From the NCBI GenBank assembly GCA_037481815.1, contig JBBFKX010000002.1, positions 367,647 through 431,646 on the forward strand: a DNA stretch of 64,000 bases, written 5' to 3'. Source of the stretch: a candidate division WOR-3 bacterium. GTDB lineage: Bacteria; Hydrothermota; 32-111. The position numbers were made by a program, and so were the translations under genes. Shown one piece after another: positions 50,701 through 64,000 of this stretch (the stretch's first letter is position 1; each line of letters starts with the position of its first letter). The notes beneath the pieces were generated by a model, which ran no database searches, had not been told where the DNA came from, and worked only from the letters and a program-made list of their open reading frames with translations.

Positions 50701-50758
50701 AACACCTCATTTTTGTTAGTTTTATGATTTTATAAAACCATAGATTAAAGTCAATAGT

Positions 50759-53050
50759 TTAGTTGTCTTTATCCCTAAAAGTGGCAGGTAAAATGAAAAG
50801 AAAGAGTGAAAATAATGAAAGTTTTATATAAGATTCTGGAAGCATCGGAATACCTCTTGTGAACGCTAAAAACCATAAAAATATAAGAAGATTTAGCCAT
50901 GCTACTAATAGAAAAATGCTTTTCACAAAAGATGGAAGAAAAATGATATTTTTTAAAATTGAGACAACAACACCGAAAATTATTAAAAATACAAGAGATT
51001 GAATTATGTTAAACCTTAAAAAGTATAGAGGATTCTGTATTTTTTCATATTTCAGAATCAAAAAATTCAACCTATCAAAAAAATCTCCTTTTTCATTGAT
51101 TATCATATTATAAGTTAAATTATCAAAACTTTCTTTTCTACCTGTTATAAAATAATAACCATATTTTATTTTTTCACTTTTCATACTACTTAATAATTTT
51201 ATCTCCTTCTCTTTTTCCTGTTTCATATTCAATCTATCATAAATACCTGCAAAAGTTGTTGTACCCCAGAAATTGATTCTAAAGTTTGAATCTTTAACAC
51301 TTTTTTGATAAAGCAGTATTGAACCAGAAATTATTATAAAAAGATAGAAAAGCCCTGGAATTATTCTGAAAAAGTTTAAATTTCTTCTATTTCTTTTTTG
51401 TTTTGAAATAATCTGTCCTATTCTTTTGGGATCATCCCACAAGTTTTCAACCTCATCGCCAATTTTCAGATTTACTGTCTGTTCAAAACCTAAAATCCTC
51501 TTTAAAATTTTAACAGATTTCAAGTCGATTTCATTCTTTTCAAGTATTGATATTATTTTTCTGTTTTCGATACTACTGAGTTGATCCTTTTCTGAATATC
51601 TTTCAAGAAGAATTCTCAAACATGTAATTTTATCCCTTTCCGATAGACCTGAACTATAAACAAAAATAGTTATATTTCTTATCACTTTTACTTCATTATT
51701 CGAACTCTTTGTTAAATCTGTATACTCATCAATAAAACTGATAAATTCTCCATTCAATATTAAACTGATTATTTTATTTTCGGCAGCAGTTGATTTTTGC
51801 GATAGATATTTAAAAAGAAAACTTTTTAGATTGTTAACATTTATTTTTTTCCCAAAAATAACGAAAGGCAAACTTTTATTGTATTGATAAATCAACCTCA
51901 TTATTTTTAAATCCTCATTTATACCCGAATCTTTTAAACTTTGAATGAATTTCAAATCTTTTTTCTGTTTATTGAAATCACAAACAGATGAAAATTCTCC
52001 TCGACCAAGATTTTTAATCGCTGTATTCCAGTTCTCTTCACTCTCTGCAATTCCATAAGAAAGATCCTTTAAAGAGTGATAAAATTTACCATTCAACTCA
52101 AAAGGTTTCGTTATACTTTCTTTTTCTTCTTCCTCAAAAACTTTTTCAATCTTTCCGTTTATCCAATTTTCAACCTGCTGAAAACCCCATCTTTTCTCAT
52201 AATCTCTAAGAAGTAATCCTTTTATCAGGACTTTTAAATTTTGATCTATTTTTTCGGGGATCTCAATATTTTTTGTTGTAATATTTACAAAAATCACCTG
52301 GTGATTGGCACCTTTAAAAGGTAACTCACCAAAAACCAGTTCATAAAGAGTCATTCCTAATGTCCAGTAATCTGATTCCTTTCTCATTGCACCCGATAAC
52401 ATTTCTGGAGACATATAACTTGTTGTTCCTCTGACCTGTGTGAACCTCATTGTTTGTTCTCCATCAAGAAGGTTTGAAATACCAAAATCAGAAAAAATTA
52501 TAGATTTAATGTTATCATTTCTTAACAAAAGATTTGATGGTTTTAAATCAAGATAGATTATTCCCTCATCATGTAAAATTTTTAAACCTTTGTTAACCTT
52601 TTTAACAAATTCTTTAATTTCATTTATCGACAATTTTCTTTTGTTAACATAATCTTTTAAAGTTCCCGCTTGAGCGTATTCCATTACTTCATAATATCTT
52701 TCATTAACCTCATCATATTCGAATTCATAAATCTGAACAAAAAAATCTTTATTATTTTTGCTTAGTTTCATAATCCTTTTTATAACATCAGTTTTTGGAA
52801 CTATTCCCTTTCGATAATACTTCAAAAAATATTTTTCATTGTTCTTTGAGACAAGAAAGGTATCCGCTTCACCACCCTGAGCAGGGTATTCCTTTTCGAT
52901 GATGTAATCTTTAATTTTTACAGGTCTGACAGAATTTTCCTGAACATTTTCTTTTGATGGTGTTGAAAAATTTTTTACTATTGTTTTTTCATCTTGTAAT
53001 CCTTCGTTGTTTTCAAAACTTTTCCTTATAGTTTTGTCATTATCAAACAT
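50759..53050 (-). CDS. Hanks-type Ser/Thr protein kinase with C-terminal multi-pass membrane region
   Basis: GGEAD loop, LK, YLDLKPSN, DFG, GT..YMSPE, SDYW.LG; several C-terminal hydrophobic helices. Confidence 0.92.
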   Translation of the reverse strand: MFDNDKTIRKSFENNEGLQDEKTIVKNFSTPSKENVQENSVRPVKIKDYIIEKEYPAQGGEADTFLVSKNNEKYFLKYYRKGIVPKTDVIKRIMKLSKNNKDFFVQIYEFEYDEVNERYYEVMEYAQAGTLKDYVNKRKLSINEIKEFVKKVNKGLKILHDEGIIYLDLKPSNLLLRNDNIKSIIFSDFGISNLLDGEQTMRFTQVRGTTSYMSPEMLSGAMRKESDYWTLGMTLYELVFGELPFKGANHQVIFVNITTKNIEIPEKIDQNLKVLIKGLLLRDYEKRWGFQQVENWINGKIEKVFEEEEKESITKPFELNGKFYHSLKDLSYGIAESEENWNTAIKNLGRGEFSSVCDFNKQKKDLKFIQSLKDSGINEDLKIMRLIYQYNKSLPFVIFGKKINVNNLKSFLFKYLSQKSTAAENKIISLILNGEFISFIDEYTDLTKSSNNEVKVIRNITIFVYSSGLSERDKITCLRILLERYSEKDQLSSIENRKIISILEKNEIDLKSVKILKRILGFEQTVNLKIGDEVENLWDDPKRIGQIISKQKRNRRNLNFFRIIPGLFYLFIIISGSILLYQKSVKDSNFRINFWGTTTFAGIYDRLNMKQEKEKEIKLLSSMKSEKIKYGYYFITGRKESFDNLTYNMIINEKGDFFDRLNFLILKYEKIQNPLYFLRFNIIQSLVFLIIFGVVVSILKNIIFLPSFVKSIFLLVAWLNLLIFLWFLAFTRGIPMLPESYIKLSLFSLFLFILPATFRDKDN

Positions 53051-53494
53051 CTAATATCCCCCTTTTTCCACATCTATTAAAAGGTCTCCTGCAAGTGATA
53101 TTCTATCTCCACCTTTTATTCTATACTGTTTATATTCTTCACATTTTTTATCATTTAGAAATGTTCCGTTTAAACTTCCAAGATCCTCGATGAACCATTC
53201 ATTACCTTTTCTCTCAACTCTTATATGTTCTCTTGATACAGTTTTAATATTCGAACAATCGATTTTTACACCTTTTCGACCAATAATATCTCCACTTTCA
53301 ATTTCAAATTTTTTGTTCATACAACTAAAAACAATCGTTTCAGCATCTTCTTTTTCAACTTTAACTCTCAGATTATTGAGATCGTTTTCATCAACAGGTG
53401 AAATGTCTGCAATGTTGTTGTTACATTTTGAGCAATTCATTTGAGTTATTTCATTCTTTTCATTACAAACTGGACAGATTTTTATCAATCCCAT
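53051..53494 (-). CDS. Zinc-ribbon + FHA domain protein
   Basis: CPVC-x10-CSKC; IIGR, VSREH, DLGSLNGTFLN. Confidence 0.92.
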   Translation of the reverse strand: MGLIKICPVCNEKNEITQMNCSKCNNNIADISPVDENDLNNLRVKVEKEDAETIVFSCMNKKFEIESGDIIGRKGVKIDCSNIKTVSREHIRVERKGNEWFIEDLGSLNGTFLNDKKCEEYKQYRIKGGDRISLAGDLLIDVEKGGY

Positions 53495-53502
53495 AAAAAC
53501 CT

Positions 53503-54057
53503 CTATTTCGGTATTCCTGAAATTATAAATTCGTTTTCAAACTTGAATCTTTGGAAAATATTGTTTTTCCTTTTTCTTCTATATTTTTCATATTTTTCTC
53601 TTATCACATTTTTTTTGCTCAAAATTATCATTTTTTGATTGTTCGATCCTCTCCAGATAAGATTTGATTTTTTATCTTTTATGTATTTCCCATCGATTAA
53701 AACTGAAATATACCTTAAACAACTTTTAAATTCATTTTTTATATTCTCAAATCTATAGCCAGTGTAAACCAGAATATCATCATATTCTCGTTTTATTTCT
53801 TTTAATAGGATCAAAAGAGATCCATACTGTAAAAAAGGTTCTCCACCCGATATTGTTATTCCTTCACAACCTGATTTTTTAGATACAATCATTTTTTTTA
53901 TCAGTTCTTCAACTGACACTTCAATACCCCCCATCTTATCCCATGTATGTTGAGATATACATCCTTCACATCTTATATCACACCCCTGTGTCCAGAGAAC
54001 AAATCTTTTACTAGGTCCAAGGTTATAAATTGGAAAATAAAAAGCACTTATTCTCAT
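53503..54057 (-). CDS. NrdG-like radical SAM / 4Fe-4S activase
   Basis: LGP..R..LW.QGCDIRCEGC (CX3CX2C), GITISGGEPF, YTGY, DG.Y, WRGS.NQ; ATG 54057 overlaps the ATPase stop (ATGA). Confidence 0.88.
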   Translation of the reverse strand: MRISAFYFPIYNLGPSKRFVLWTQGCDIRCEGCISQHTWDKMGGIEVSVEELIKKMIVSKKSGCEGITISGGEPFLQYGSLLILLKEIKREYDDILVYTGYRFENIKNEFKSCLRYISVLIDGKYIKDKKSNLIWRGSNNQKMIILSKKNVIREKYEKYRRKRKNNIFQRFKFENEFIISGIPK

Positions 54058-55877
54058 CTTTTTATCAACATTTTCCATCTGTTATCTTCCTTGATTATTT
54101 TTTCTATTGTTAAAATTTCTCCTTCCTTTGCCTCAATTTCAAAAAGAGTTCTTGAAAGTGTATTTATGAAAACATCTTCTATAACATTTCCTATTCCTCT
54201 TCCTCCCATCGATAAATCTTTTGTTGCTTCAGAATATACAGTTCCGAGTGCTTCAGGTGTTAGATTTAGTATTATCTTTTTTGTATCGAGAAGTTTATCT
54301 TTAACTCTGTTGATCATCTTGTTAACGATATTCAAAGCAACATCCTTCCTTATAAAATCAAAAACAACAATATTTTCACCGATTCTGTTTAAAATTTCTG
54401 CTCTATTGATTTTATACTTAAAAAAATCATCAATTGCATCTTTAATTCTTTTTTCAATTTCGGAATATTCCATCTCTGGATTTATTCTCTGGATTCTTGT
54501 TCCATTCTCTGTTCTTTCATAAACACCAAGGTTGCTTGTAAAAATTATTAAAGATTCCGAGAAGTAAGCGAGTTCTCCTCTTCCAGAAGTTAATCGACCA
54601 TCATCAAGTATTTGCAAAAAAATATCGAGTATTTTGCTGTGTGCCTTTTCTATCTCATCAAAGAGTATCACGGAAAACGGTTTCGCTTTTATTGCGTTTA
54701 TGAGTTCTCCACCTGTTTCATAACCAACATAACCTGGAGGAGCACCAATCAACCTCTGGTCTGAATGTTCTTTTGAAAATTCACTCATATCAAACCTTAT
54801 ATAACTCGTTTCGTTCCCAAAAATCAATTTGGTAATCGATTTTGCAAGTTCTGTCTTTCCAACACCTGTGGGCCCTGCAAAAAACAAAACACCTTTTGGC
54901 CTCTGTGAAATTGTGGAATATTGGGAACCTGATAGATTGAAAACCGATCTTTTGATTATATCTGCTGCTTTGATCACGGCCTTTTCCTGTCCAAAAACAT
55001 CTTTCTTCAAAACATCTTCACTTTTTTTGATTACTTCAAGATTTAATTTTGACCAGGGGTTTTCTTCAATACCAAGTTTATATCTTCTGATCGCCTCACC
55101 TATTTCAAGAAAAGAAAGGTTTTCCTTTCTTGCGATCGATACAATCGATGCTATTTCCTGTCCCTGTAATTCCGTTGTTTGACCTATAAAAATTTCCTTC
55201 ATCTCATTTACTTTTTGATTGTTTTCCTCAAACCCAGTTATATTTTTCGATAGTAATTCAACTATGATTTTTCTTGTTTCATAATCTGGTTTTGGAATAT
55301 TCAGGGACTTTATCCTGTAGTTACCAATGTTAAACCAGGCAGGTAGATCATTATCTTTTTCAAGAATCCATAATACAAGGTTATATTGAGCCAAATTTTT
55401 CTCTTTGATAAACATTGGCTGACACACAAGCGATAATCTAAAAAGTTTATAGTAAAATTCATCTATCTCATTTCTTGAAAGTTCACTATATCGTGATGAA
55501 AAATTCAGTTGCACTACTGACAGAAATTTTTTATTGTTTACTATCTTTTCTATAATCGTTGACGAATCCTTTAACCCACAATCAAGATAGTTCTCTTTAT
55601 TAATACTGTACCCTGTTATCTCTTTAGCATCATCCTCTTTTCCTGAAACCAATTTAAAACCATATTTTGGTTCATATGAAAATACTAGATCATATCCTTC
55701 CTCTTTTAAAACATAGTTCAAATAATCTTTTAGACCAAGAGTTGTTGGAATCAGAGTGTTTTGATTACCCATATAATATGGATAAATATCATAGATGTTG
55801 CCACATATTAAAAATTGAGATTTTATTGAACAGAACCTTTTCAACTCTTTTGCCCACTTTGGATAGTATGATGACAT
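54054..55877 (-). CDS. AAA+ ATPase: N-terminal half without a recognisable Walker A, plus a ClpA/B D2-like ATPase domain
   Basis: GPTGVGKTELAK, DMSEF, LIGAPPGYVGY, FDEIEKAH, DDGRLT, GGRGI. Confidence 0.9.
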   Translation of the reverse strand: MSSYYPKWAKELKRFCSIKSQFLICGNIYDIYPYYMGNQNTLIPTTLGLKDYLNYVLKEEGYDLVFSYEPKYGFKLVSGKEDDAKEITGYSINKENYLDCGLKDSSTIIEKIVNNKKFLSVVQLNFSSRYSELSRNEIDEFYYKLFRLSLVCQPMFIKEKNLAQYNLVLWILEKDNDLPAWFNIGNYRIKSLNIPKPDYETRKIIVELLSKNITGFEENNQKVNEMKEIFIGQTTELQGQEIASIVSIARKENLSFLEIGEAIRRYKLGIEENPWSKLNLEVIKKSEDVLKKDVFGQEKAVIKAADIIKRSVFNLSGSQYSTISQRPKGVLFFAGPTGVGKTELAKSITKLIFGNETSYIRFDMSEFSKEHSDQRLIGAPPGYVGYETGGELINAIKAKPFSVILFDEIEKAHSKILDIFLQILDDGRLTSGRGELAYFSESLIIFTSNLGVYERTENGTRIQRINPEMEYSEIEKRIKDAIDDFFKYKINRAEILNRIGENIVVFDFIRKDVALNIVNKMINRVKDKLLDTKKIILNLTPEALGTVYSEATKDLSMGGRGIGNVIEDVFINTLSRTLFEIEAKEGEILTIEKIIKEDNRWKMLIKR

Positions 55878-55938
55878 TCTTTCCCTCCATTTACAATTTC
55901 ATTTAGATTAAACTTAAATTTTTCATAAAAACAAAATT

Positions 55939-57306
55939 TTACTCTGTATAAGATTCTCTGTTGTTGTATCTTTCCTGTTTTCTTTCTCTTTGATCTTTTT
56001 CAGTTACAATTTCATATTCTATGTTATTGAATTCTGGTTCAACTATTTTGATATCTTCAAATATCATTTCTTCTAAACTCATTTCTTCTAATATTTTCTT
56101 GTATAAAGTGCACCACTTTTTAGCGTTATTTTCATCTTCTTTTTTTTCAACATCACTTACAGAATCTTTTCGCTTTGTACTTCTTTTTACATACTTTGTC
56201 ACTATCCTTCCATCACTATAAGACACTTTCACAACATATTCTCCTTTTTTTATCTCAACACTTTCGCCTTCAATAAGTTTTTCAAAAATTTTTTCATCAA
56301 GTATAATCCATCCTTCATCTTTTACCTTCTTTTCAAATACAGGCAGTTTTTCTTTTAACTTGTTTCTTCTTTCCTCTTCATACAAGAATTGCTCAATTTC
56401 TTCTTCCAACTTTTCATATTGATTGGGATCAATTAAATCCTCTCGAATCAAATTTCCTATATTTTTCATCAAAATCTGATATTTGCGATTTTTGTTTTCA
56501 ACATTTACCATTTTACTTCGATATTCCGATAATTTCTCCTTCAAAACTTCGTTCATCACACTCATTTTTTTTATGTTTTCAAAATTGTAAACAAGTTGTG
56601 TATATAATGTATCAACTCTTGTCTTGTTGTCCGACTTTAAAATTTCTTCGAAAATTTCTTGATTTTCATTTTTACCGAATCCAGTAAAATTTTTTATTTT
56701 TTCATATATTAACCTTGCTTTTTCCTTTTTTTGTTGTAATTGAACCTTTTCCTGTTTGACAGAAGAATTGTTTGAAACAATTTTTTCTTCTTTCAAATTA
56801 GAACTTTTCATTGCCAGATAGTTCTGATACTTATTCACTATTTCATCACTTTTGATTTTCAGGTTTTCAAGTTTTTCTCTCTGCATGTATATGTCTTTTT
56901 CGTTTTTGACTTCATTGAGTTCTTTTTTTATTAAATTTACATCATCAGCAAAAATATTTCCAATTTCACCAAAATTCAAATCATTTTCAATTTTTGTAAT
57001 GTTTGTGTTATTGGTTAAAACAATTTCATTTTCCTCATTTTCAATTTTTTTTATTTCGGCAAACAACTTCCGAAAATTTCTCCTCATATTTTTTTCAACC
57101 TGCTCAATAACGATTGAACTTCTTTCATATCTAATTTCATTGTTTATTTCTTTAGCAAGATCGTTTATCTTAACTTGAATTTCATCTTTTCTTTTATCAG
57201 AAATCTTTGATATCTTTCTCTCACATTTCATTAAGTTATTATTTAAAATGTTCATGATCCTTTTCTTCTCATTCAAATAAATTCTTGTTTCTACATAACT
57301 ACTCAT
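55939..57306 (-). CDS. Coiled-coil-rich hypothetical protein
   Basis: K/E/N-rich helical sequence with a C-terminal alpha/beta segment (E.NAKKWC); overlaps the PP2C stop. Confidence 0.75.
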   Translation of the reverse strand: MSSYVETRIYLNEKKRIMNILNNNLMKCERKISKISDKRKDEIQVKINDLAKEINNEIRYERSSIVIEQVEKNMRRNFRKLFAEIKKIENEENEIVLTNNTNITKIENDLNFGEIGNIFADDVNLIKKELNEVKNEKDIYMQREKLENLKIKSDEIVNKYQNYLAMKSSNLKEEKIVSNNSSVKQEKVQLQQKKEKARLIYEKIKNFTGFGKNENQEIFEEILKSDNKTRVDTLYTQLVYNFENIKKMSVMNEVLKEKLSEYRSKMVNVENKNRKYQILMKNIGNLIREDLIDPNQYEKLEEEIEQFLYEEERRNKLKEKLPVFEKKVKDEGWIILDEKIFEKLIEGESVEIKKGEYVVKVSYSDGRIVTKYVKRSTKRKDSVSDVEKKEDENNAKKWCTLYKKILEEMSLEEMIFEDIKIVEPEFNNIEYEIVTEKDQRERKQERYNNRESYTE

Positions 57307-58063
57307 CCAAACACCTCACTATTATGAAGGTTATATTATCTTTTCCTCCATTCTTGAGCGCTTTTTCAAGTAAAAATTTTCCTGTTTCTTCAAGATTTTC
57401 TTTTTGAAACCCCTCTTCGAGCACATCTATTTCTATACTATCCCAGAGACCATCTGAACAAACTAAAAATGTATCTCCCTTTTCAAAACCTTTTTCAATT
57501 ACATATATCTGTGGTATATTTTCTATTCCATCTCCTGAAATCGAAGAAGTTATAACATTATGTGGAACATTTTCTATCTTGTCAGTTACTCCATTATCTT
57601 TCAACATCTCAAGAACTGAGTGATCTTTTGATAATCTTTCAAGATATTTACCTGACAGTTTATAAACCCGTGAATCACCAACATTAAAAACGACGATCTT
57701 TTCTTTATCAAATGCGATACCTGCAACAGTTGTTCCAAGTCCTGATAATCTTTCGTTATTTTGAGAAATATTTTCAAGTTCGATTTTTGATGATTTTATA
57801 AGATCTTCAATTTTTTTATCATTTTTTTCTATGATATAACCTCTTAAATGTTCAAGAACGATTCTACTTGCTATTTCTCCTCCTTGGTTTCCCCCAATCC
57901 CATCGGCAACAGAAAAAATAGTTTTGTTTTTCTCAAAACGATGTGAGCACACAACCTCCATATTCGTTCGATTAAAAATCATATCATCAACTAATAAAGA
58001 ATCTTCATTGTTTTCTCTTTTTAATCCAATATTGGTAGCAAAAACCGCTTTAAATTTTGTCAT
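57299..58063 (-). CDS. PP2C/PPM-family Ser/Thr phosphatase
   Basis: G.KRENNEDS, VADGIGG, NVGDSR, DHS, CSDGL, GGKDNIT. Confidence 0.93.
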   Translation of the reverse strand: MTKFKAVFATNIGLKRENNEDSLLVDDMIFNRTNMEVVCSHRFEKNKTIFSVADGIGGNQGGEIASRIVLEHLRGYIIEKNDKKIEDLIKSSKIELENISQNNERLSGLGTTVAGIAFDKEKIVVFNVGDSRVYKLSGKYLERLSKDHSVLEMLKDNGVTDKIENVPHNVITSSISGDGIENIPQIYVIEKGFEKGDTFLVCSDGLWDSIEIDVLEEGFQKENLEETGKFLLEKALKNGGKDNITFIIVRCLDE

Positions 58064-59039
58064 ATTCCTTCTCCCTAAATCTTTTGATATTCTCTTTTAC
58101 CTTTTCTTCAGAAAAATTTGCATAACAATAAACACAAAGATGCATACATGTATTGTATTCTCCAATATCTTTGCTCATGATGCAGCCACAATCAGCTCTT
58201 TGTCCTTTATCTTTCAACTTTTTATTTTCAACATAGTCAGAAAAAAGATTTTCATCATATCCCAGAAATTCCATCAACTTTTTGTCATCCTTGAATAATC
58301 TGACCATAAGTTCATCATCAACACATTTGTTTTTCTTTATACCATAAACTGAAAGATCAATATTTTCAGCACATGTTGTAACTTCAAGATTAAACTTTTT
58401 ACCAATTTCAGAAATTTTTTTTGCTATTTCAATTTTTTTCTCATCATCAAATTCAATATATTTTATGTTTTTTTTGCTTAAATTATTTTTTACCTTTGAA
58501 TAAATCTGAATATCAGCATAACTGAAAACCAATTTTTCTGTGTATCCCTTAAGTTCTTTAGCAATGTTTTCAATTTTTCCAGTCAGTTTATTAATATCAA
58601 GTTGGTCATTTAGAATCAATGGATCGAATCTCCATATAACTTTTTCTTTTCCAATTTTTTCTGACAATTTTTTAAATATCTTAATTCTTTCTTCAAGTTT
58701 TATCACATTCGGTTCAAATCCTTCTTTTTCATAATCGTTCAAAGTGAACTGAAAATAGTATCCAATGTTTCTTTCATCAAGCACTTTTAAGTATGGGATT
58801 ATCGGTTCTGGATTCTTTGTCCAGAAAACAATCACTCTTGTTTCATCAAAAAAGACATACGACTCTTTGTTGTTGAAAGGGTTAACCCATTTTATATAGC
58901 CATTCTCAAGACATCTGAAAAACCAATCAGAATGAAACGCAGGTATATCGGTCGCCCTACTCGCTGAAATTATAACAGGGCAAACACCTTCCTTTTTTTG
59001 TCCATCAATAATCTTTTCAATTTTATTCCATTTATACAT
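58050..59039 (-). CDS. DUF1848 family protein (radical-SAM-related, C-terminal CX3CX2C)
   Basis: IISASRATDIPAF..WF, VFWTKNP, WRFDP, C.C..SKDIG.YNTC.H.CVYCYAN. Confidence 0.88.
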   Translation of the reverse strand: MYKWNKIEKIIDGQKKEGVCPVIISASRATDIPAFHSDWFFRCLENGYIKWVNPFNNKESYVFFDETRVIVFWTKNPEPIIPYLKVLDERNIGYYFQFTLNDYEKEGFEPNVIKLEERIKIFKKLSEKIGKEKVIWRFDPLILNDQLDINKLTGKIENIAKELKGYTEKLVFSYADIQIYSKVKNNLSKKNIKYIEFDDEKKIEIAKKISEIGKKFNLEVTTCAENIDLSVYGIKKNKCVDDELMVRLFKDDKKLMEFLGYDENLFSDYVENKKLKDKGQRADCGCIMSKDIGEYNTCMHLCVYCYANFSEEKVKENIKRFREKEYDKI

Positions 59040-60075
59040 ATAAACCCCAGAAATATCCTTCTTTTGTATTTTTTGTTAATTCAATACATTTTTCAATCTT
59101 TCCATTTTCACAAATATTAAAACCTGTCGATGTTTCAGCAACGATGTATTTTGAATTATCAACGACCTTTTTATTTACTAACTTTGAAGCAGTTCCCTTT
59201 TCAAGAATGATCTTATAATTTGTTTTAAAATTATCATACACCATAGATCCAAATCCAAAATCTCTGATTATTTTAAAATTTATCTGTGTGAAGCAATCTC
59301 CATTATTGTTGACACAATCGTTGTGATTTAAATTACATTGCACAGGTAATAAAGTCGTATAATTTTTGTTGTTTCTGTAAAATTTCTTCAATTCATTATT
59401 CATAATTATCGGGAAAAACCTCCCATCGTTATTTTTATCGCAAACATCAGTCAAAAATATTATACCATCTTTGTTTAGGTATTTTACCATTTCTTCTACA
59501 AAAATTCTATAATTTTCTTCCTTGTTTTCTGTTCTGTAAAATTCATTTATCATATTGAAATTCAAAATGATATCAAATTTTTCTTTTAGTGATTCCATCA
59601 AATTTTTCAATCCGTTAGAGAATTTTTCTTCTGATGTAAAATCATAAAGCAAATATGTTGAATTTGTGCATGTATTATTTTTCACATCAAAATAATATTT
59701 ATACTTAAAAAAGTATTTTTTCATTATAGGATTTGAGTCAACAAGATAAAACTTAAAACTCTCATGATTGAATTTTTTATTCATAAATGCCTTAATCATT
59801 CCAAAAATTTCGGGTGCTGCACCACATCCAATATCGAGTATTTTTATTTCTTTTTTATTTTTAATCGTTTCAATATAGTTTGTATTTTCTATTAGATTTT
59901 TAAACACAAGATATGACACAATTTTGCTTCTTAAAAAGTATGTTCCGAGATATTCTAAAACCGTTGCCTCATCAGCATTTTTAAAAGTGATTATCCCACC
60001 ACCCCTTTGTTTGTATTTTGCTCCAATTGTCTCAAGAAACCTAAAAACTTCATTACTTATTTTTATATTTATCAT
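59032..60075 (-). CDS. Class I SAM-dependent methyltransferase-like protein
   Basis: YLGTYFLRS, ILDIGCGA motif I, acidic residue after strand 2 (LVD), FDII, L..DGII..TD; Cys cluster QC-x6-C-x6-C. Confidence 0.75.
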   Translation of the reverse strand: MINIKISNEVFRFLETIGAKYKQRGGGIITFKNADEATVLEYLGTYFLRSKIVSYLVFKNLIENTNYIETIKNKKEIKILDIGCGAAPEIFGMIKAFMNKKFNHESFKFYLVDSNPIMKKYFFKYKYYFDVKNNTCTNSTYLLYDFTSEEKFSNGLKNLMESLKEKFDIILNFNMINEFYRTENKEENYRIFVEEMVKYLNKDGIIFLTDVCDKNNDGRFFPIIMNNELKKFYRNNKNYTTLLPVQCNLNHNDCVNNNGDCFTQINFKIIRDFGFGSMVYDNFKTNYKIILEKGTASKLVNKKVVDNSKYIVAETSTGFNICENGKIEKCIELTKNTKEGYFWGLYV

Positions 60076-60522: not shown

Positions 60523-61077
60523 TTAGTAAGGTAAATCTTCTTCATCAACATCATAGAATTCATCAAAATCATAAATAAAGTAATTCTTTATTCTTTCTCC
60601 AATATCTTTTTTTATTTCATTTTCAAGTGTCTTCAAATTTGTTGAAATATCATTTAGTAGATTTTCAATTTCAATTCTAAATATAGGAAAGTATCTAATT
60701 TCATAAAGTTCCCCTATCATTATATTTTTCTTTTTCATTTCAACTTCAAAAATATCAGCTAATATTGGAAAGAAAGTTTTGTTGCATATTACAGTATAAA
60801 TAAAATCCGATTTAATAATTGCTGGAGCGTTTGCAATTTCTTTATTATATAAGATAACCGAAGCAATATCTCTTGGCTCAGGTAAAAAATTTGTTAAAAT
60901 AAATTTTAATATATCTTTGTTTTTATCATTGCAATAAAGATATTCAAACAGTTGATCAAGATTCATAATGTTTTTTGTATCATAATTTTTACCAAAAAGA
61001 TAAAATGTGAAATCAGCATATTTCAAAAGGTAATTGCAGATTGTTTCAACAGTGATCTGTTTTCTTCCGTTTAACAT
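60523..61077 (-). CDS. Hypothetical protein (paralog of 61208-61771)
   Basis: RBS AAGGAG; patterned similarity to the upstream ORF. Confidence 0.65.
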   Translation of the reverse strand: MLNGRKQITVETICNYLLKYADFTFYLFGKNYDTKNIMNLDQLFEYLYCNDKNKDILKFILTNFLPEPRDIASVILYNKEIANAPAIIKSDFIYTVICNKTFFPILADIFEVEMKKKNIMIGELYEIRYFPIFRIEIENLLNDISTNLKTLENEIKKDIGERIKNYFIYDFDEFYDVDEEDLPY

Positions 61078-61207: not shown

Positions 61208-61771
61208 CTAAACAAAACAAAATGGATCTATAAAATCATCGTAAATGAAAGATTTATAAGTGCCTTTAACAAAAAAAGATCTATTTTTTAATTCCTCTAT
61301 AAATATTGTTGTATAAATGTTATATATATCTTTAAAATTTCTCTCTATATCTTTTACAGCATTTTTAAAATCCGGTGTTGTATTACCAGTTTTTATTATA
61401 TCTACTAAAATAGATTCTGTTATGTTATAACGATTAAGAATTCTACCAAGTTCAAAAGAACAATGGACCATTTCATTTATCGGCCTTATAAAATAAAGAA
61501 ACTTTGCAACCTGTTTTAAATTTTCAGTATCTATTTTACTAAAAAAATAGTATGGAATACCCGTACGAACAATATGAATATGAAAATCTATTAAAAATTT
61601 ATATACTTCTCTATTTTCTTCATTGCTAAAAATACTTTTAAGTATTTCATCTGCACTCCTTTCATCATCTGAAAATTTATGATTATATAATTTACAATAG
61701 AATTCCATATACTCAACAAGAAACTTTACTATCCCATCCATTGTTACTTGATTATTTTTTTTCTTTTCCAT
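61208..61771 (-). CDS. Hypothetical protein (paralog of 60523-61077)
   Basis: RBS GGAGGG; 187 aa. Confidence 0.65.
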   Translation of the reverse strand: MEKKKNNQVTMDGIVKFLVEYMEFYCKLYNHKFSDDERSADEILKSIFSNEENREVYKFLIDFHIHIVRTGIPYYFFSKIDTENLKQVAKFLYFIRPINEMVHCSFELGRILNRYNITESILVDIIKTGNTTPDFKNAVKDIERNFKDIYNIYTTIFIEELKNRSFFVKGTYKSFIYDDFIDPFCFV

Positions 61772-62428: not shown

Positions 62429-63553
62429 TTATTCATTTCCATATTCTCTATTTAGATAATCTGCTGCCCAATTTAAATTGACACTATTATTATCAGATAT
62501 TTCGATTCCAAATTTTCCTCCAAAATCATCTCTTTTATATGTTCCAATTAATATTTTCTTACCAGTATCAACTTTGAAATAATTTCCTTTTATTGCTCCT
62601 TGTCCATGATAGGGCATTGAATAGCAGGTTTTGATCCATCTATTATTCCTCCAAACTTCATAGACAAAATCTTGAAAACCTTCTGGATAATGATGCTCAC
62701 TAAATGTTGGTTCTTTTCTTTCATCATCATTCAAATTAGTTAAATTTGGAGCTTTAGGATACCTAATTCTAAAAGATTCAAGATATATAGTTCCAAGAGT
62801 ATTTAATGAATACAAAAATCCTTCTTTTGTATCTATTATATCAATAAATACTTTCAATTTTTCATCCAATTCAATTTCATTAGTATTATCAATAGTATCT
62901 TCTCTTTCTAAAAGAGACAATAGATCAGCATTTTTTCCTAAAATATCATAGTCCAATGAAATAGGTAATGGGGGAAAATCTATAATTTCATTAAATTTTT
63001 CATGTTTATAAAACACAGGAACATTTAGCGCTTGACCAAAAATAACAGCAACTGCTATTTGTGCCTTATATCCCCCAGTTGCATCTATTGCAACATTATT
63101 TAATCCATATTTTTTAATCATTTTACCAAGTTTTTTAACAAGATTTCTTAATCCTTCTTTTTTAAATTTTTTAGGATCTTTATCTTGAAGCAACTCAACT
63201 ATTTCAACTTCGATATTATTAAGATTTAAATCTTCTCTATTTTCATAATATAGTTGAAGAAATTTACCTGTATTCTTGCCATCTTCAGTATCAGAGACAA
63301 AAAATATAATATTTTCTAATGTTAACCAGCTTTTCTTTCTTATTTCTTCAATTGTATTAATCTCTGCGCCACAAAATCTTTCTGAAGGATTTATAGATTG
63401 AAATAGTTTAGATAATTTGTCCCATTGCTTATTTTCAAAAGAATCTTTAATTTCTTTCCAATTTTCTGGTTTTTTTTCAAAATTTTCATTTAATTTTTTT
63501 AAATTCCCTTCAAATAAACTAGTTCCAACAGTACACAATAAAGTCGTTTTCAT
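62429..63553 (-). CDS. CRISPR-associated CARF protein, APE2256 family, with C-terminal extension
   Basis: L.TVGTSL, AEINT, SDT.DG, GL.NL, ATGGYKA, Y.HE.F.EII..PPLP; adjacent to a CRISPR array. Confidence 0.85.
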   Translation of the reverse strand: MKTTLLCTVGTSLFEGNLKKLNENFEKKPENWKEIKDSFENKQWDKLSKLFQSINPSERFCGAEINTIEEIRKKSWLTLENIIFFVSDTEDGKNTGKFLQLYYENREDLNLNNIEVEIVELLQDKDPKKFKKEGLRNLVKKLGKMIKKYGLNNVAIDATGGYKAQIAVAVIFGQALNVPVFYKHEKFNEIIDFPPLPISLDYDILGKNADLLSLLEREDTIDNTNEIELDEKLKVFIDIIDTKEGFLYSLNTLGTIYLESFRIRYPKAPNLTNLNDDERKEPTFSEHHYPEGFQDFVYEVWRNNRWIKTCYSMPYHGQGAIKGNYFKVDTGKKILIGTYKRDDFGGKFGIEISDNNSVNLNWAADYLNREYGNE

Positions 63554-63652: not shown

Positions 63653-64000
63653 CGCCAATAACCAAAAATAGAGCAATAAAGAGTGTGATACTGACAGCAT
63701 TTTTTACTGATGCTCCTGGTAAGTTTCCATACCATAAATGGTGCGATTAAGAGAAAACCAGGAACTGACGTTATAATAAATATATTTGCAATGTTTCCAT
63801 ACCATAAATGGTGCGATTAAGAGAGATATGGACAATTATATATACCTAAGGTTTCTGATATGTTTCCATACCATAAATGGTGCGATTAAGAGGGAAAAGA
63901 AAAACCACCTGTTATCAGTGATAGTTTAAGTTTGTTTCCATACCAGAAATGGTGCGATTAAGAGAGGGGTGGATCTTATGCTGATGTTGATTTAAAGATT
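63653..64000 (-). CRISPR. CRISPR array (trailer end; runs off the window). Repeat 5'-CTCTTAATCGCACCATTTATGGTATGGAAAC-3' (31 bp)
   Basis: Repeats at 63723-63753, 63793-63823, 63862-63892 and 63934-63964 (last has one substitution), plus a degenerate repeat at 63653-63683; spacers 39, 39, 38 and 41 bp and one partial. Confidence 0.95.

Follow-up and report, generated by a model that had tools for sequence, protein, structure and literature searches.

An activase-like radical SAM protein and an Hsp100-like ATPase in the shared core of an apparently undescribed family of candidate conflict systems

The subject of this analysis is a cassette of six minus-strand genes (positions 50759-58063) in a window of 64,000 nucleotides (nt), the whole stretch of DNA that was analysed, from a candidate division WOR-3 bacterium (assembly GCA_037481815.1, contig JBBFKX010000002.1, positions 367,647 to 431,646). 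Sequence comparisons with relatives indicate that the six genes are one accessory, horizontally acquired operon and that the cassette is a phospho-regulated subtype (type B) of a wider family. The predicted core of this family combines an Hsp100-like ATPase with a dead first AAA+ tier (D1), a radical S-adenosylmethionine (SAM) protein resembling the activases of glycyl radical enzymes, a kinase-fold protein that is either an active kinase or a pseudokinase, and a helical protein whose C-terminal end is KA1-like. The system is apparently undescribed and probably, with real reservations on our part, acts in conflict with phages or mobile elements.

Read from its first gene to its last, the cassette encodes a PP2C-type Ser/Thr phosphatase of 254 amino acids (aa) (57299-58063; Pfam PP2C_2, E-value (E) 1.2e-12), a helical ("coiled-coil") protein of 455 aa without a Pfam, PADLOC or NCBIfam family (55939-57306), an Hsp100/Clp-like AAA+ ATPase of 607 aa (54054-55877; Pfam AAA_2, E 2.6e-45, and ClpB_D2-small, residues 326-590), a radical SAM (rSAM) protein of 191 aa (53503-54078; Pfam Fer4_12, E 8.7e-34, and Radical_SAM), a Zn-ribbon-FHA protein of 147 aa (53051-53494; Pfam FHA, E 5.2e-16, with an N-terminal CxxC...CxxC) and a Ser/Thr kinase of 763 aa (50759-53050; Pkinase, E 8.4e-41, residues 69-293). 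All six lie on the minus strand, at the coordinates given in the window's list of open reading frames (ORFs). From gene to gene, the first pair overlaps by 8 nt, the second is separated by 61 nt, the third overlaps by 25 nt, the fourth is separated by 8 nt and the fifth abuts directly, in agreement with an earlier note on this DNA that described six co-oriented, tightly packed genes with a largest gap of 61 bp. The start of the PP2C gene overlaps the 3' end of a DUF1848 gene by 14 nt. A promoter scan of the cassette returned 48 promoter-like sites against 53 expected, and a terminator scan found none after the kinase gene.

Synteny with related genomes (numbered G, with G001-G005 congeners of the window genome and G009 from another genus) points to insertion of the six genes as a unit. 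The comparison covers G003, G004 and G005, with G001 left out for want of a fumarase match. These three congeners lack the ATPase and carry the DUF1848 gene about 100 nt from a ferredoxin-fumarase-kor-mfd block; DUF1848 adjoins the ferredoxin gene in all three, and its methyltransferase neighbor is present there in two (G003 and G004). When the junctions were aligned with G003 and G004, the window was homologous to their spacer up to the kinase stop and again from the 3' end of DUF1848. The right boundary of the insertion lies in an intergenic stretch (50701-50758) upstream of the ferredoxin gene (fdx) that matches the congeners' fdx-DUF1848 spacer to ~50750. Because the junctions align to the congeners' spacer, the six genes constitute a precise insertion or deletion (indel) of ~7.3 kb between fdx and DUF1848, and because the same alignment bounds the indel to the six genes, DUF1848 and the methyltransferase are resident genes of the genus that fall outside the cassette. 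The Pfam scan detected no integrase or transposase within the window cassette or at either end of it, and no long direct or inverted terminal repeats were found at its ends. The two insertion junctions (~50740-50752 and ~58020-58032) are weakly alike over 12-13 nt, a resemblance that may be chance in AT-rich DNA or the remnant of a target duplication.

The distribution of the cassette is patchy. G002 keeps the whole neighborhood at 80-100% identity, and G009 shares the six genes only, in identical order, at 34-69% identity and in a different neighborhood. Full-length ATPase orthologues occur in 3 of 40 relatives, and the N-terminal domain of the ATPase (N-domain) is encoded in 4 of 272 genomes of the phylum, the window's own counted, all within one family. 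The co-occurrence of the six genes exceeds chance, because these six families are found together again elsewhere, both in genomes and in metagenomes. Thus the gene-neighborhood search that had been proposed as a check on the cassette, once run, recovered the six families elsewhere, in the same order in G009 and with a patchy distribution, and the proposal of a distinct multi-gene system stands: the gene set is conserved elsewhere, patchy and inserted as a unit.

Metagenomes revealed the breadth of the family. A DNA pattern for the invariant linker of the ATPase retrieved at least 120 metagenome stretches, 80 of which were fetched with their flanks; individual relative loci, mainly such stretches, are numbered L. 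The ATPase was matched by tblastn in 119 of the 120 listed stretches, and the remaining one contains only 45 nt of ATPase. The linkage and type counts given here apply among the matches listed, and those for linkage were drawn from 74 loci bearing the ATPase N-terminus. Of the 52 loci in which the sequence runs 800 nt or more past the ATPase, 49 have an rSAM gene (directly adjacent and on the same strand in 43 of those 49), and of the 43 in which it runs 4.5 kb or more, 41 have a kinase-fold gene. The exceptions are L130, L132 and L173, without an rSAM, and L173 and L180, without a kinase. A word-based search with the ATPase yielded 59 clusters of relatives, and a profile search with its N-domain against 1.84 billion representatives yielded 1158 at E<=1e-3, of which 744 reach E<=1e-10 and 279 E<=1e-30. 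With 1158 representative clusters at the first threshold and members in several phyla, the family is not rare. A search with the full-length ATPase alignment was dominated by ClpB-type matches, with the N-domain in only 6 of 80 loci. Relatives of the ATPase come from records named Pseudomonas, Bradyrhizobium, Lachnospiraceae, WOR-3, Magnetoovum and Campylobacterales. The window cassette has each of the family's features: the N-domain and linker of the ATPase, an rSAM with the family's C-terminal GIP extension, a kinase-fold protein and a helical protein.

Two types can be distinguished. The commoner, type A (32 loci, including records named Pseudomonas and Bradyrhizobium), is ordered ATPase, rSAM, a protein of ~2100 aa and one of ~450 aa starting MSGPK; its N-domain was found in 12 of 301 species genomes of the genus of L022, the centre genome counted. 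The ~2100-aa protein joins a double Zn-ribbon, a kinase fold, DUF4011, a superfamily 1 (SF1) helicase and an MTES_1575 nuclease, and type A loci lack FHA and PP2C. Type B comprises the window, G002, G009, L119, L136, L161, L166 and a partial locus, L026, and encodes the ATPase, the rSAM, the Zn-ribbon-FHA protein, PP2C, a helical protein of 455-520 aa and a kinase with a variable C-terminus (a membrane domain in the window, Sel1 repeats in L119 and L161, TPR repeats in L166). The same families appear with shuffled gene order in L119, L136, L161 and L166. A Zn-ribbon module sits beside the rSAM gene in both types: in type A it is the N-terminus of the pseudokinase, and in type B (6 of 7 loci) it is the FHA protein. 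The earlier view of a phospho-switched core did not survive this comparison, since phosphorylation is an add-on of one subtype and type A has a pseudokinase and neither PP2C nor FHA.

Several loci show other arrangements. A distant variant at L027:4816-13558, with an ATPase 29% identical, encodes HEAT-repeat proteins, a kinase fused to a beta-helix domain, a 435-aa protein without a family, a vWA protein and a PP2C, and has no radical SAM gene; it bridges the family to TerY-P-like triads. At L180:9158-11601 the ATPase is followed by a 182-aa protein made of the first half of the rSAM domain and a biotin-protein-ligase C-terminal domain, with no kinase, in what is apparently a decayed locus. 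The ATPase homologue L222:1-1887, 36% identical and bearing the linker motif, occupies the extreme end of an IMG/VR viral contig of 50 kb, on the opposite strand; its neighbors are T7-like (RNA polymerase, gp0.7-like kinase, gp2.5 SSB, RusA and Ant). This homologue could be phage-borne, mark a prophage junction or come from a chimeric assembly. Four type A loci also neighbor a gene for a protein of ~1135 aa (L023:397-3807, L106:5654-9061, L127:10966-14376 and L170:13139-16540), directly upstream and divergent in L023, L106 and L127; in L170 it shares the strand of the locus and lies ~2.3 kb upstream. The three proteins scanned (L023, L106 and L170) carry an RNase_H_2 domain and an SF1 helicase, and that of L023 also matches the TM0106-family RecB-like nuclease model and, in PADLOC, MkoA/MkoC-like models. 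This protein may be a linked component or the product of a neighboring defence gene.

For the ATPase, motifs and a structural model predict a two-tier Hsp100 protein in which D1 is dead, the ClpB-D2-like lower tier is active and Clp_N is lacking. The D2 tier contains Walker A (GPTGVGKT), Walker B and a GYVG pore loop. Walker A/B, the pore-loop Y383 and the sensor-2 R560 are invariant in 38 sequences, as are Y266, K267, G269, N273 and W275 of the linker motif RRYKLGxxENPW; type A ATPases have Walker A/B in 30 of 30 and GYVG in 25 of 30. No Walker A was found in the N-terminal tier (residues 1-275; checked to 280) of any member checked, and Pfam found no Clp_N or middle domain in the window ATPase. 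An AlphaFold2 (AF2) model (predicted local distance difference test score, pLDDT, 88.9) aligned to the two-ring chains of ClpC1, ClpC, ClpA and ClpB over ~640 columns (E ~1e-30; template modelling score by query, TMq, 0.57-0.64). The first description of the protein as a ClpB-D2-like ATPase was therefore correct as to the active D2 and incomplete in that the protein is not a D2 alone, the motif scan and the model revealing a dead D1 tier in addition. Like ClpA, ClpB, ClpC and ClpV, the ATPase has two AAA+ tiers and a D2 with Walker A/B, GYVG, a sensor-2 Arg and D2-small. Unlike them, it lacks Walker A in the upper tier as well as Clp_N and middle domains, scores far under the NCBIfam equivalog cut-offs (249.1 against 1232 for ClpB, 216.8 against 993 for ClpA and 200.1 against 885 for ClpV) and is encoded with an rSAM, not with ClpP or adaptors. 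A search of solved structures with the N-domain sequence gave only weak FtsH/VAT matches (E 0.04-0.8). The 275-residue N-terminal tier marks a specific family.

The rSAM protein is predicted from its motifs and matches to be glycyl-radical-enzyme-activase-like, in the PFL-AE/NrdG branch. It carries the motifs CX3CX2C, GGEP and WRGSNNQ; C33/C37/C40, GGEP, N147-Q148 and G188 are invariant in 22 rSAM sequences, and each of 31 type A rSAMs has both CX3CX2C and GGEP. A family-specific C-terminal extension ends in an invariant GIP. As the family alignment suggests, translation probably starts at the eighth codon, M8 (54057), which gives an ATGA start/stop overlap with the ATPase stop. The nearest solved structure is PFL-AE (3c8f, E 3.9e-11), which the type A rSAM also matches (E 2.3e-8); viperin (8e-4) and QueE (2e-3) are about seven to eight orders of magnitude weaker. 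The best NCBIfam model is NrdG (TIGR02491; 114.2 bits, under the cut-off of 126.1), in line with the earlier reading of an NrdG-like enzyme, and PFLA scores 72 bits. With PFL-AE and NrdG the protein shares CX3CX2C, GGEP, small size and the RGSxNQ motif, and it differs from them in its score under the NrdG cut-off, its GIP extension and its position, which is not beside any glycyl radical enzyme. The genome's canonical NrdD lies on another contig with a Fer4_12-family open frame just beside it; therefore, the cassette rSAM is not the activase of that reductase. A viperin (pVip) identity was considered and rejected, with NF038283 at 28.1 bits against 180, PADLOC pVip at E 1e-6 and PFL-AE a far better match.

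The kinase, FHA protein and PP2C supply the phospho-regulatory layer of type B. The window kinase has K77, D168 in YLDLKPSN and a DFG motif in a kinase domain (~45-300) followed by a conserved post-kinase region, and the beta3 Lys, catalytic Asp and DFG are present in 6 of 6 aligned type B kinases. In contrast, the six type A kinase folds aligned keep the HRD Asp in 5 of 6, the beta3 Lys in none and the DFG Asp in 1; with the latter two residues so depleted, the type A protein is a probable pseudokinase. Active kinases co-occur with PP2C and FHA, and pseudokinases with neither. Hydropathy marks hydrophobic segments at ~560-581 and ~675-732 of the window kinase as a candidate membrane part. The kinase is 47% identical to its G009 orthologue over the full length; searched against a protein atlas, its C-terminal part gave no usable feature, with structural matches at TM-scores by query of at most 0.36, several of them to other bacterial kinases. 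In the FHA protein, G72, H90, N109 and T111 and the ribbon cysteines C7, C10, C21 and C24 are invariant in 7 type B proteins, and 6 of 7 type B loci have its gene next to that of the rSAM. PP2C has its acidic motifs (NCBIfam Stp1/IreP 159.5 bits, cut-off 230), an orthologue at the same position in G009 (50% identity) and counterparts in type B loci L119, L136, L166 and L026. Two claims of the earlier note are borne out here: the catalytic motifs of the ATPase, rSAM, kinase, FHA and PP2C are intact in sequence or alignments, and Pfam and NCBIfam domains agree that a kinase writer, an FHA reader and a PP2C eraser are encoded together.

The helical protein, described before as an orphan, has a relative in type A: the type B protein matches the type A fourth gene product in hhalign (99.6%, E 9.3e-25, 428 columns), and it is a core component because of this homology. 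G332 and D391 are invariant in 28 sequences. Its C-terminal alpha/beta domain (~306-455) was modeled with AF2 (150 aa, pLDDT 79) as helix, strands and helix, and the best fold matches are KA1 domains (9m86_C, Z 7.1; 4cfe_A, 6.6; 5wi2_B, 6.1; 1ul7, 6.0). These matches span Z 5.2-7.1, which is under 8 and in the middling range by the aligner's own scale, and Foldseek returned nothing for the domain at E below 0.6, so the KA1-like fold is offered as a lead, not an assignment. The likeness to the KA1 domains of the eukaryotic kinases MARK, Chk1, AMPK alpha and SAD extends to being encoded with a kinase-fold protein; there is, however, no sequence similarity, and here the domain is on a separate protein. 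At the N-terminus, M1 and S2 are invariant and G3-P4-K5 at least 90% conserved in 22 type A proteins, and MS is invariant in 7 type B proteins. This conservation suggests a processed, modified or pore-engaged tail.

Searches for known systems found relatives of single parts. No PADLOC model covers the ATPase N-domain, the rSAM or the helical protein, and the PADLOC run suggested in the earlier note gave no full-system match for the window or for type A. NCBIfam (June 2026) likewise has no specific model for these three, and a full-text literature search found no description of this gene combination. The nearest published text is a part of Kaur et al. 2020 (PMC7159879) on FtsH-type vWA-MoxR ternary conflict systems, in which an AAA+ ATPase accompanies a radical SAM enzyme proposed to modify a protein or peptide. 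As presented in that part, those predicted conflict systems share with the window cassette an AAA+ ATPase plus rSAM; they use a MoxR ATPase, vWA and FtsH, whereas the cassette has an Hsp100-type ATPase, an activase-type rSAM and no vWA. Type A, and only type A, resembles Prometheus (ProA; as given in part of a secondary paper, PMC13700489) and Hhe in combining DUF4011, an SF1 helicase and an MTES_1575 nuclease. It differs in adding the N-terminal double Zn-ribbon and pseudokinase, in scoring under the cut-offs and in always being encoded with the ATPase, rSAM and helical protein. The window cassette is further from ProA, Hhe and Mokosh, having no SF1 helicase or nuclease and an MkoA match limited to the kinase domain. 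An active Hanks-type kinase, PP2C and FHA in one operon are also features of the kinase/PP2C(/FHA) modules TerY-P, Stk2, PD-T4-6, MADS MAD6 and PpkA-PppA-Fha of the type VI secretion system (T6SS), and the PADLOC models mad6, PD-T4-6 and Stk2 match the window kinase domain. Here, the triad is optional on an ATPase/rSAM core, and MAD6 scores 94.8 against an NCBIfam cut-off of 460. TerY-P, reportedly set out by Gao et al. in 2020 as the TerY vWA protein with a PP2C and a kinase, differs further, because Pfam found no vWA domain in the six cassette proteins or their neighbors.

That the cassette is a member of such a known system (TerY-P, T6SS control with ClpV, Mokosh, Dodola or a spare NrdG for class III ribonucleotide reductase) has, in our estimation, next to no probability. 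Matches in this direction do exist (PADLOC DolB at 69 bits, MkoA at 79 bits on the kinase and mad6 at 159 bits; NCBIfam ClpV at 200 and NrdG at 114 bits), yet all are under a curated cut-off or limited to a generic domain. The DolA protein of Dodola is a DUF6414 protein encoded next to the ClpB-like DolB; the cassette's DolB match covers only the generic AAA core, and DolA was found in 0 of 11 proteins scanned. The T6SS phosphorylation pathway (PpkA/PppA/Fha/ClpV) is countered by the lack of VipB/TssC (PF05943) in the 95%-complete genome and by ClpV and TagH models far under cut-off, which, with no vWA in the cassette, upholds the earlier statement that vWA and T6SS structural genes are absent. 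The cassette also has no PLD or helicase, NrdD stands elsewhere with its adjacent Fer4_12-family frame, and the linkage of rSAM to the ATPase in 49 of 52 loci speaks against a stray NrdG. Maturation of a ribosomally synthesized and post-translationally modified peptide (RiPP), with the rSAM and kinase modifying a precursor that the ATPase unfolds or exports, would accommodate the weak kinase-domain matches to the lanthionine synthetase kinase domains of LanL (54.6 bits) and LanKC (24.5 bits), and radical SAM enzymes are frequent in RiPP clusters. We regard it as very improbable: the cassette contains no precursor-like small ORF, SPASM domain, cyclase, protease or transporter, the rSAM is of the small activase branch and not a SPASM/twitch maturase, and type A carries a helicase-nuclease.

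The case for a conflict system draws on the mobility and patchiness of the cassette, the linkage of its genes, the match between kinase activity and the presence of PP2C and FHA, the type A proteins and the gene neighborhoods. The helicase-nuclease part of type A scores 493 bits on PADLOC PDC-S37 and 217 bits on Hhe, and, in NCBIfam, 501.5 bits on the anti-phage ProA (cut-off 1500) and 312.6 on Hhe (cut-off 2000); because these scores are under the full-length cut-offs, it is a relative, not a member, of the known families. Defence, toxin-antitoxin or mobile-element genes lie within ~6 kb of 11 of 22 type A loci (a raw count with no matched control), among them Mrr, RES/Xre, an AbiEii-like ATPase with SRA, Shedu, HEPN-Toprim, PLD/RadC, integrases, ArdC and an Rhs toxin cluster. 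This flank scan took in 96 of the 134 listed flank ORFs and left out L127, L023 and most short ORFs. The G009 cassette, in turn, has genes for a type I restriction R-subunit, DUF6978 and DUF1828/1829 on one side and for a methyltransferase and the AbiEi and MqsA antitoxins on the other. In the window, a CARF gene and a clustered regularly interspaced short palindromic repeat (CRISPR) array less than 6 kb away also count in its favor, as does the position of Pseudomonas aeruginosa homologues at the flank of the defence hotspot cDHS1.

A number of observations weigh against this interpretation. The other 11 of the 22 type A flanks hold only housekeeping or ambiguous genes. According to a passage of Johnson et al. 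(PMC10250203), a DUF4011 gene beside a radical SAM protein, PA14_RS11765, is the right-flank marker of this P. aeruginosa hotspot, and the same passage has the flank markers in every P. aeruginosa isolate and treats them as core flank, not as an immune system. The cluster of P. aeruginosa ATPase orthologues (80% identical, 2522 member sequences) fits this account, and it appears that essentially all P. aeruginosa genomes carry homologues next to the hotspot, the gene order there being taken from that passage. Presence in every isolate is unusual for a defence system, and, since the locus is core flank in P. aeruginosa, the defence-rich neighborhoods may reflect the nearby hotspot. Moreover, over their specific parts the four core proteins have no match among validated defence proteins in PADLOC, and type B has no recognizable nuclease, protease or NADase effector; to assign that part to the membrane region of its kinase is a guess. 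Finally, no convincing glycyl-radical loop of the RVxG[FWY] type was found in the partner proteins of the rSAM. The two invariant glycines examined, G332 of the helical protein (followed by W/Y) and G269 of the ATPase linker, are helix ends in the models, not hairpins, and the Zn-ribbons of the FHA protein and the type A N-terminus are followed by no conserved Gly-aromatic motif; a glycyl-radical site at G332 or G269 is thus unsupported by the models.

Several of these points favor an accessory module for stress response, proteostasis or signaling, in which a kinase, FHA and PP2C control an Hsp100 remodeller and the rSAM is a redox or oxygen sensor or a protein-modifying helper. The ATPase is structurally a ClpA/B/C-type machine, the kinase-FHA-PP2C triad is common in bacteria (compare the NCBIfam Stk1/Stp1-type matches), half of the scanned type A flanks are not defence-like, and the P. 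aeruginosa locus is core in the passage of PMC10250203. We nonetheless hold this explanation to be rather unlikely. The distribution is very patchy (4 of 272 and 12 of 301), the cassette was inserted as a unit, type A is fused to a Prometheus/Hhe-like helicase-nuclease, and the C-terminal modules vary among members. Variable C-terminal modules are a pattern known from conflict systems. A selfish addiction, exclusion or inter-bacterial conflict module that serves a mobile element and not the host would suit the integrases, ArdC-type anti-restriction gene, toxin-antitoxin genes and Rhs toxin cluster beside some loci, and the one ATPase homologue that shares an IMG/VR contig end with T7-like genes. 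This appears improbable, however, for a cassette with no integrase or transposase in it or at its ends and no recognizable toxin or immunity pair, and the system is chromosomal and stable in P. aeruginosa as that organism is presented in the passage of PMC10250203.

Under the conflict-system reading, the kinase-fold and helical proteins would form a resting sensor complex, and the variable C-terminal module of the kinase-fold protein would read the trigger or deliver the output. Its forms are a membrane domain in the window, Sel1/TPR in some relatives and the Prometheus/Hhe-like helicase-nuclease in type A; TPR/Sel1 modules suggest sensors and the nuclease suggests an effector. The ATPase, as a hexameric unfoldase, would use ATP to thread or remodel a protein partner, and the rSAM would abstract hydrogen from a protein substrate by radical chemistry, as the related PFL-AE and NrdG do. 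In type B, the active kinase would mark a phospho-threonine for the Zn-ribbon-FHA protein to read and PP2C to erase, placing a reversible switch on the core. Taken further, radical protein chemistry could itself be the immune mechanism, a speculative step to which we attach little credence. In that scheme, once the kinase-fold protein senses a trigger, the Hsp100-like motor would thread a polypeptide into the activase-like rSAM or present it to that enzyme, which would install a backbone radical. The polypeptide might belong to the invader or be the helical or Zn-ribbon partner that the system itself encodes. The radical might switch on an effector or lead to cross-linking or oxygen-dependent cleavage of the target, with the kinase/FHA/PP2C layer as a reversible safety catch. 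If true, an activase of the glycyl-radical type would here be coupled to an unfoldase in a role outside metabolism. More generally, a defence or conflict role would add a component type absent from the defence catalogues searched, an activase-like rSAM with an Hsp100-type unfoldase. Because homologues are apparently present in essentially all P. aeruginosa genomes, the hypothesis is directly testable in a standard laboratory organism. Furthermore, the active-kinase subtype with FHA and PP2C and the pseudokinase subtype with a helicase-nuclease provide a built-in experiment on a phospho-switch layered onto what would be an immune core.

The genomic setting is as the earlier note had it, with kor genes beside the block and a CARF gene and a CRISPR array within ~6 kb. 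Downstream of the cassette are genes for a ferredoxin and a class I fumarase, korABG and mfd; upstream are DUF1848, the methyltransferase, two ORFs without a family, the CARF7-family gene and the CRISPR array. The CARF gene (62429-63553; PADLOC CARF7--CARF_DUF2103, E 1e-102) is 4.4 kb from the cassette. The array begins at ~63722, 5.7 kb off, with four repeats of ~31 nt spaced 69-72 nt apart, and continues past the window end (63722-64000 in the window). Abutting the cassette on the minus strand (58050-60075), the genes for DUF1848 (329 aa, with a C-terminal Cys cluster; 151 bits on the PADLOC model RTasDUF1848) and the SAM-methyltransferase (347 aa) overlap each other by 8 nt and may form a DNA- or RNA-modification module of their own. 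Between the methyltransferase and the CARF gene, two minus-strand ORFs at 60523-61077 (184 aa) and 61208-61771 (187 aa) have no Pfam, PADLOC or NCBIfam family, and both are 96% conserved in G002.

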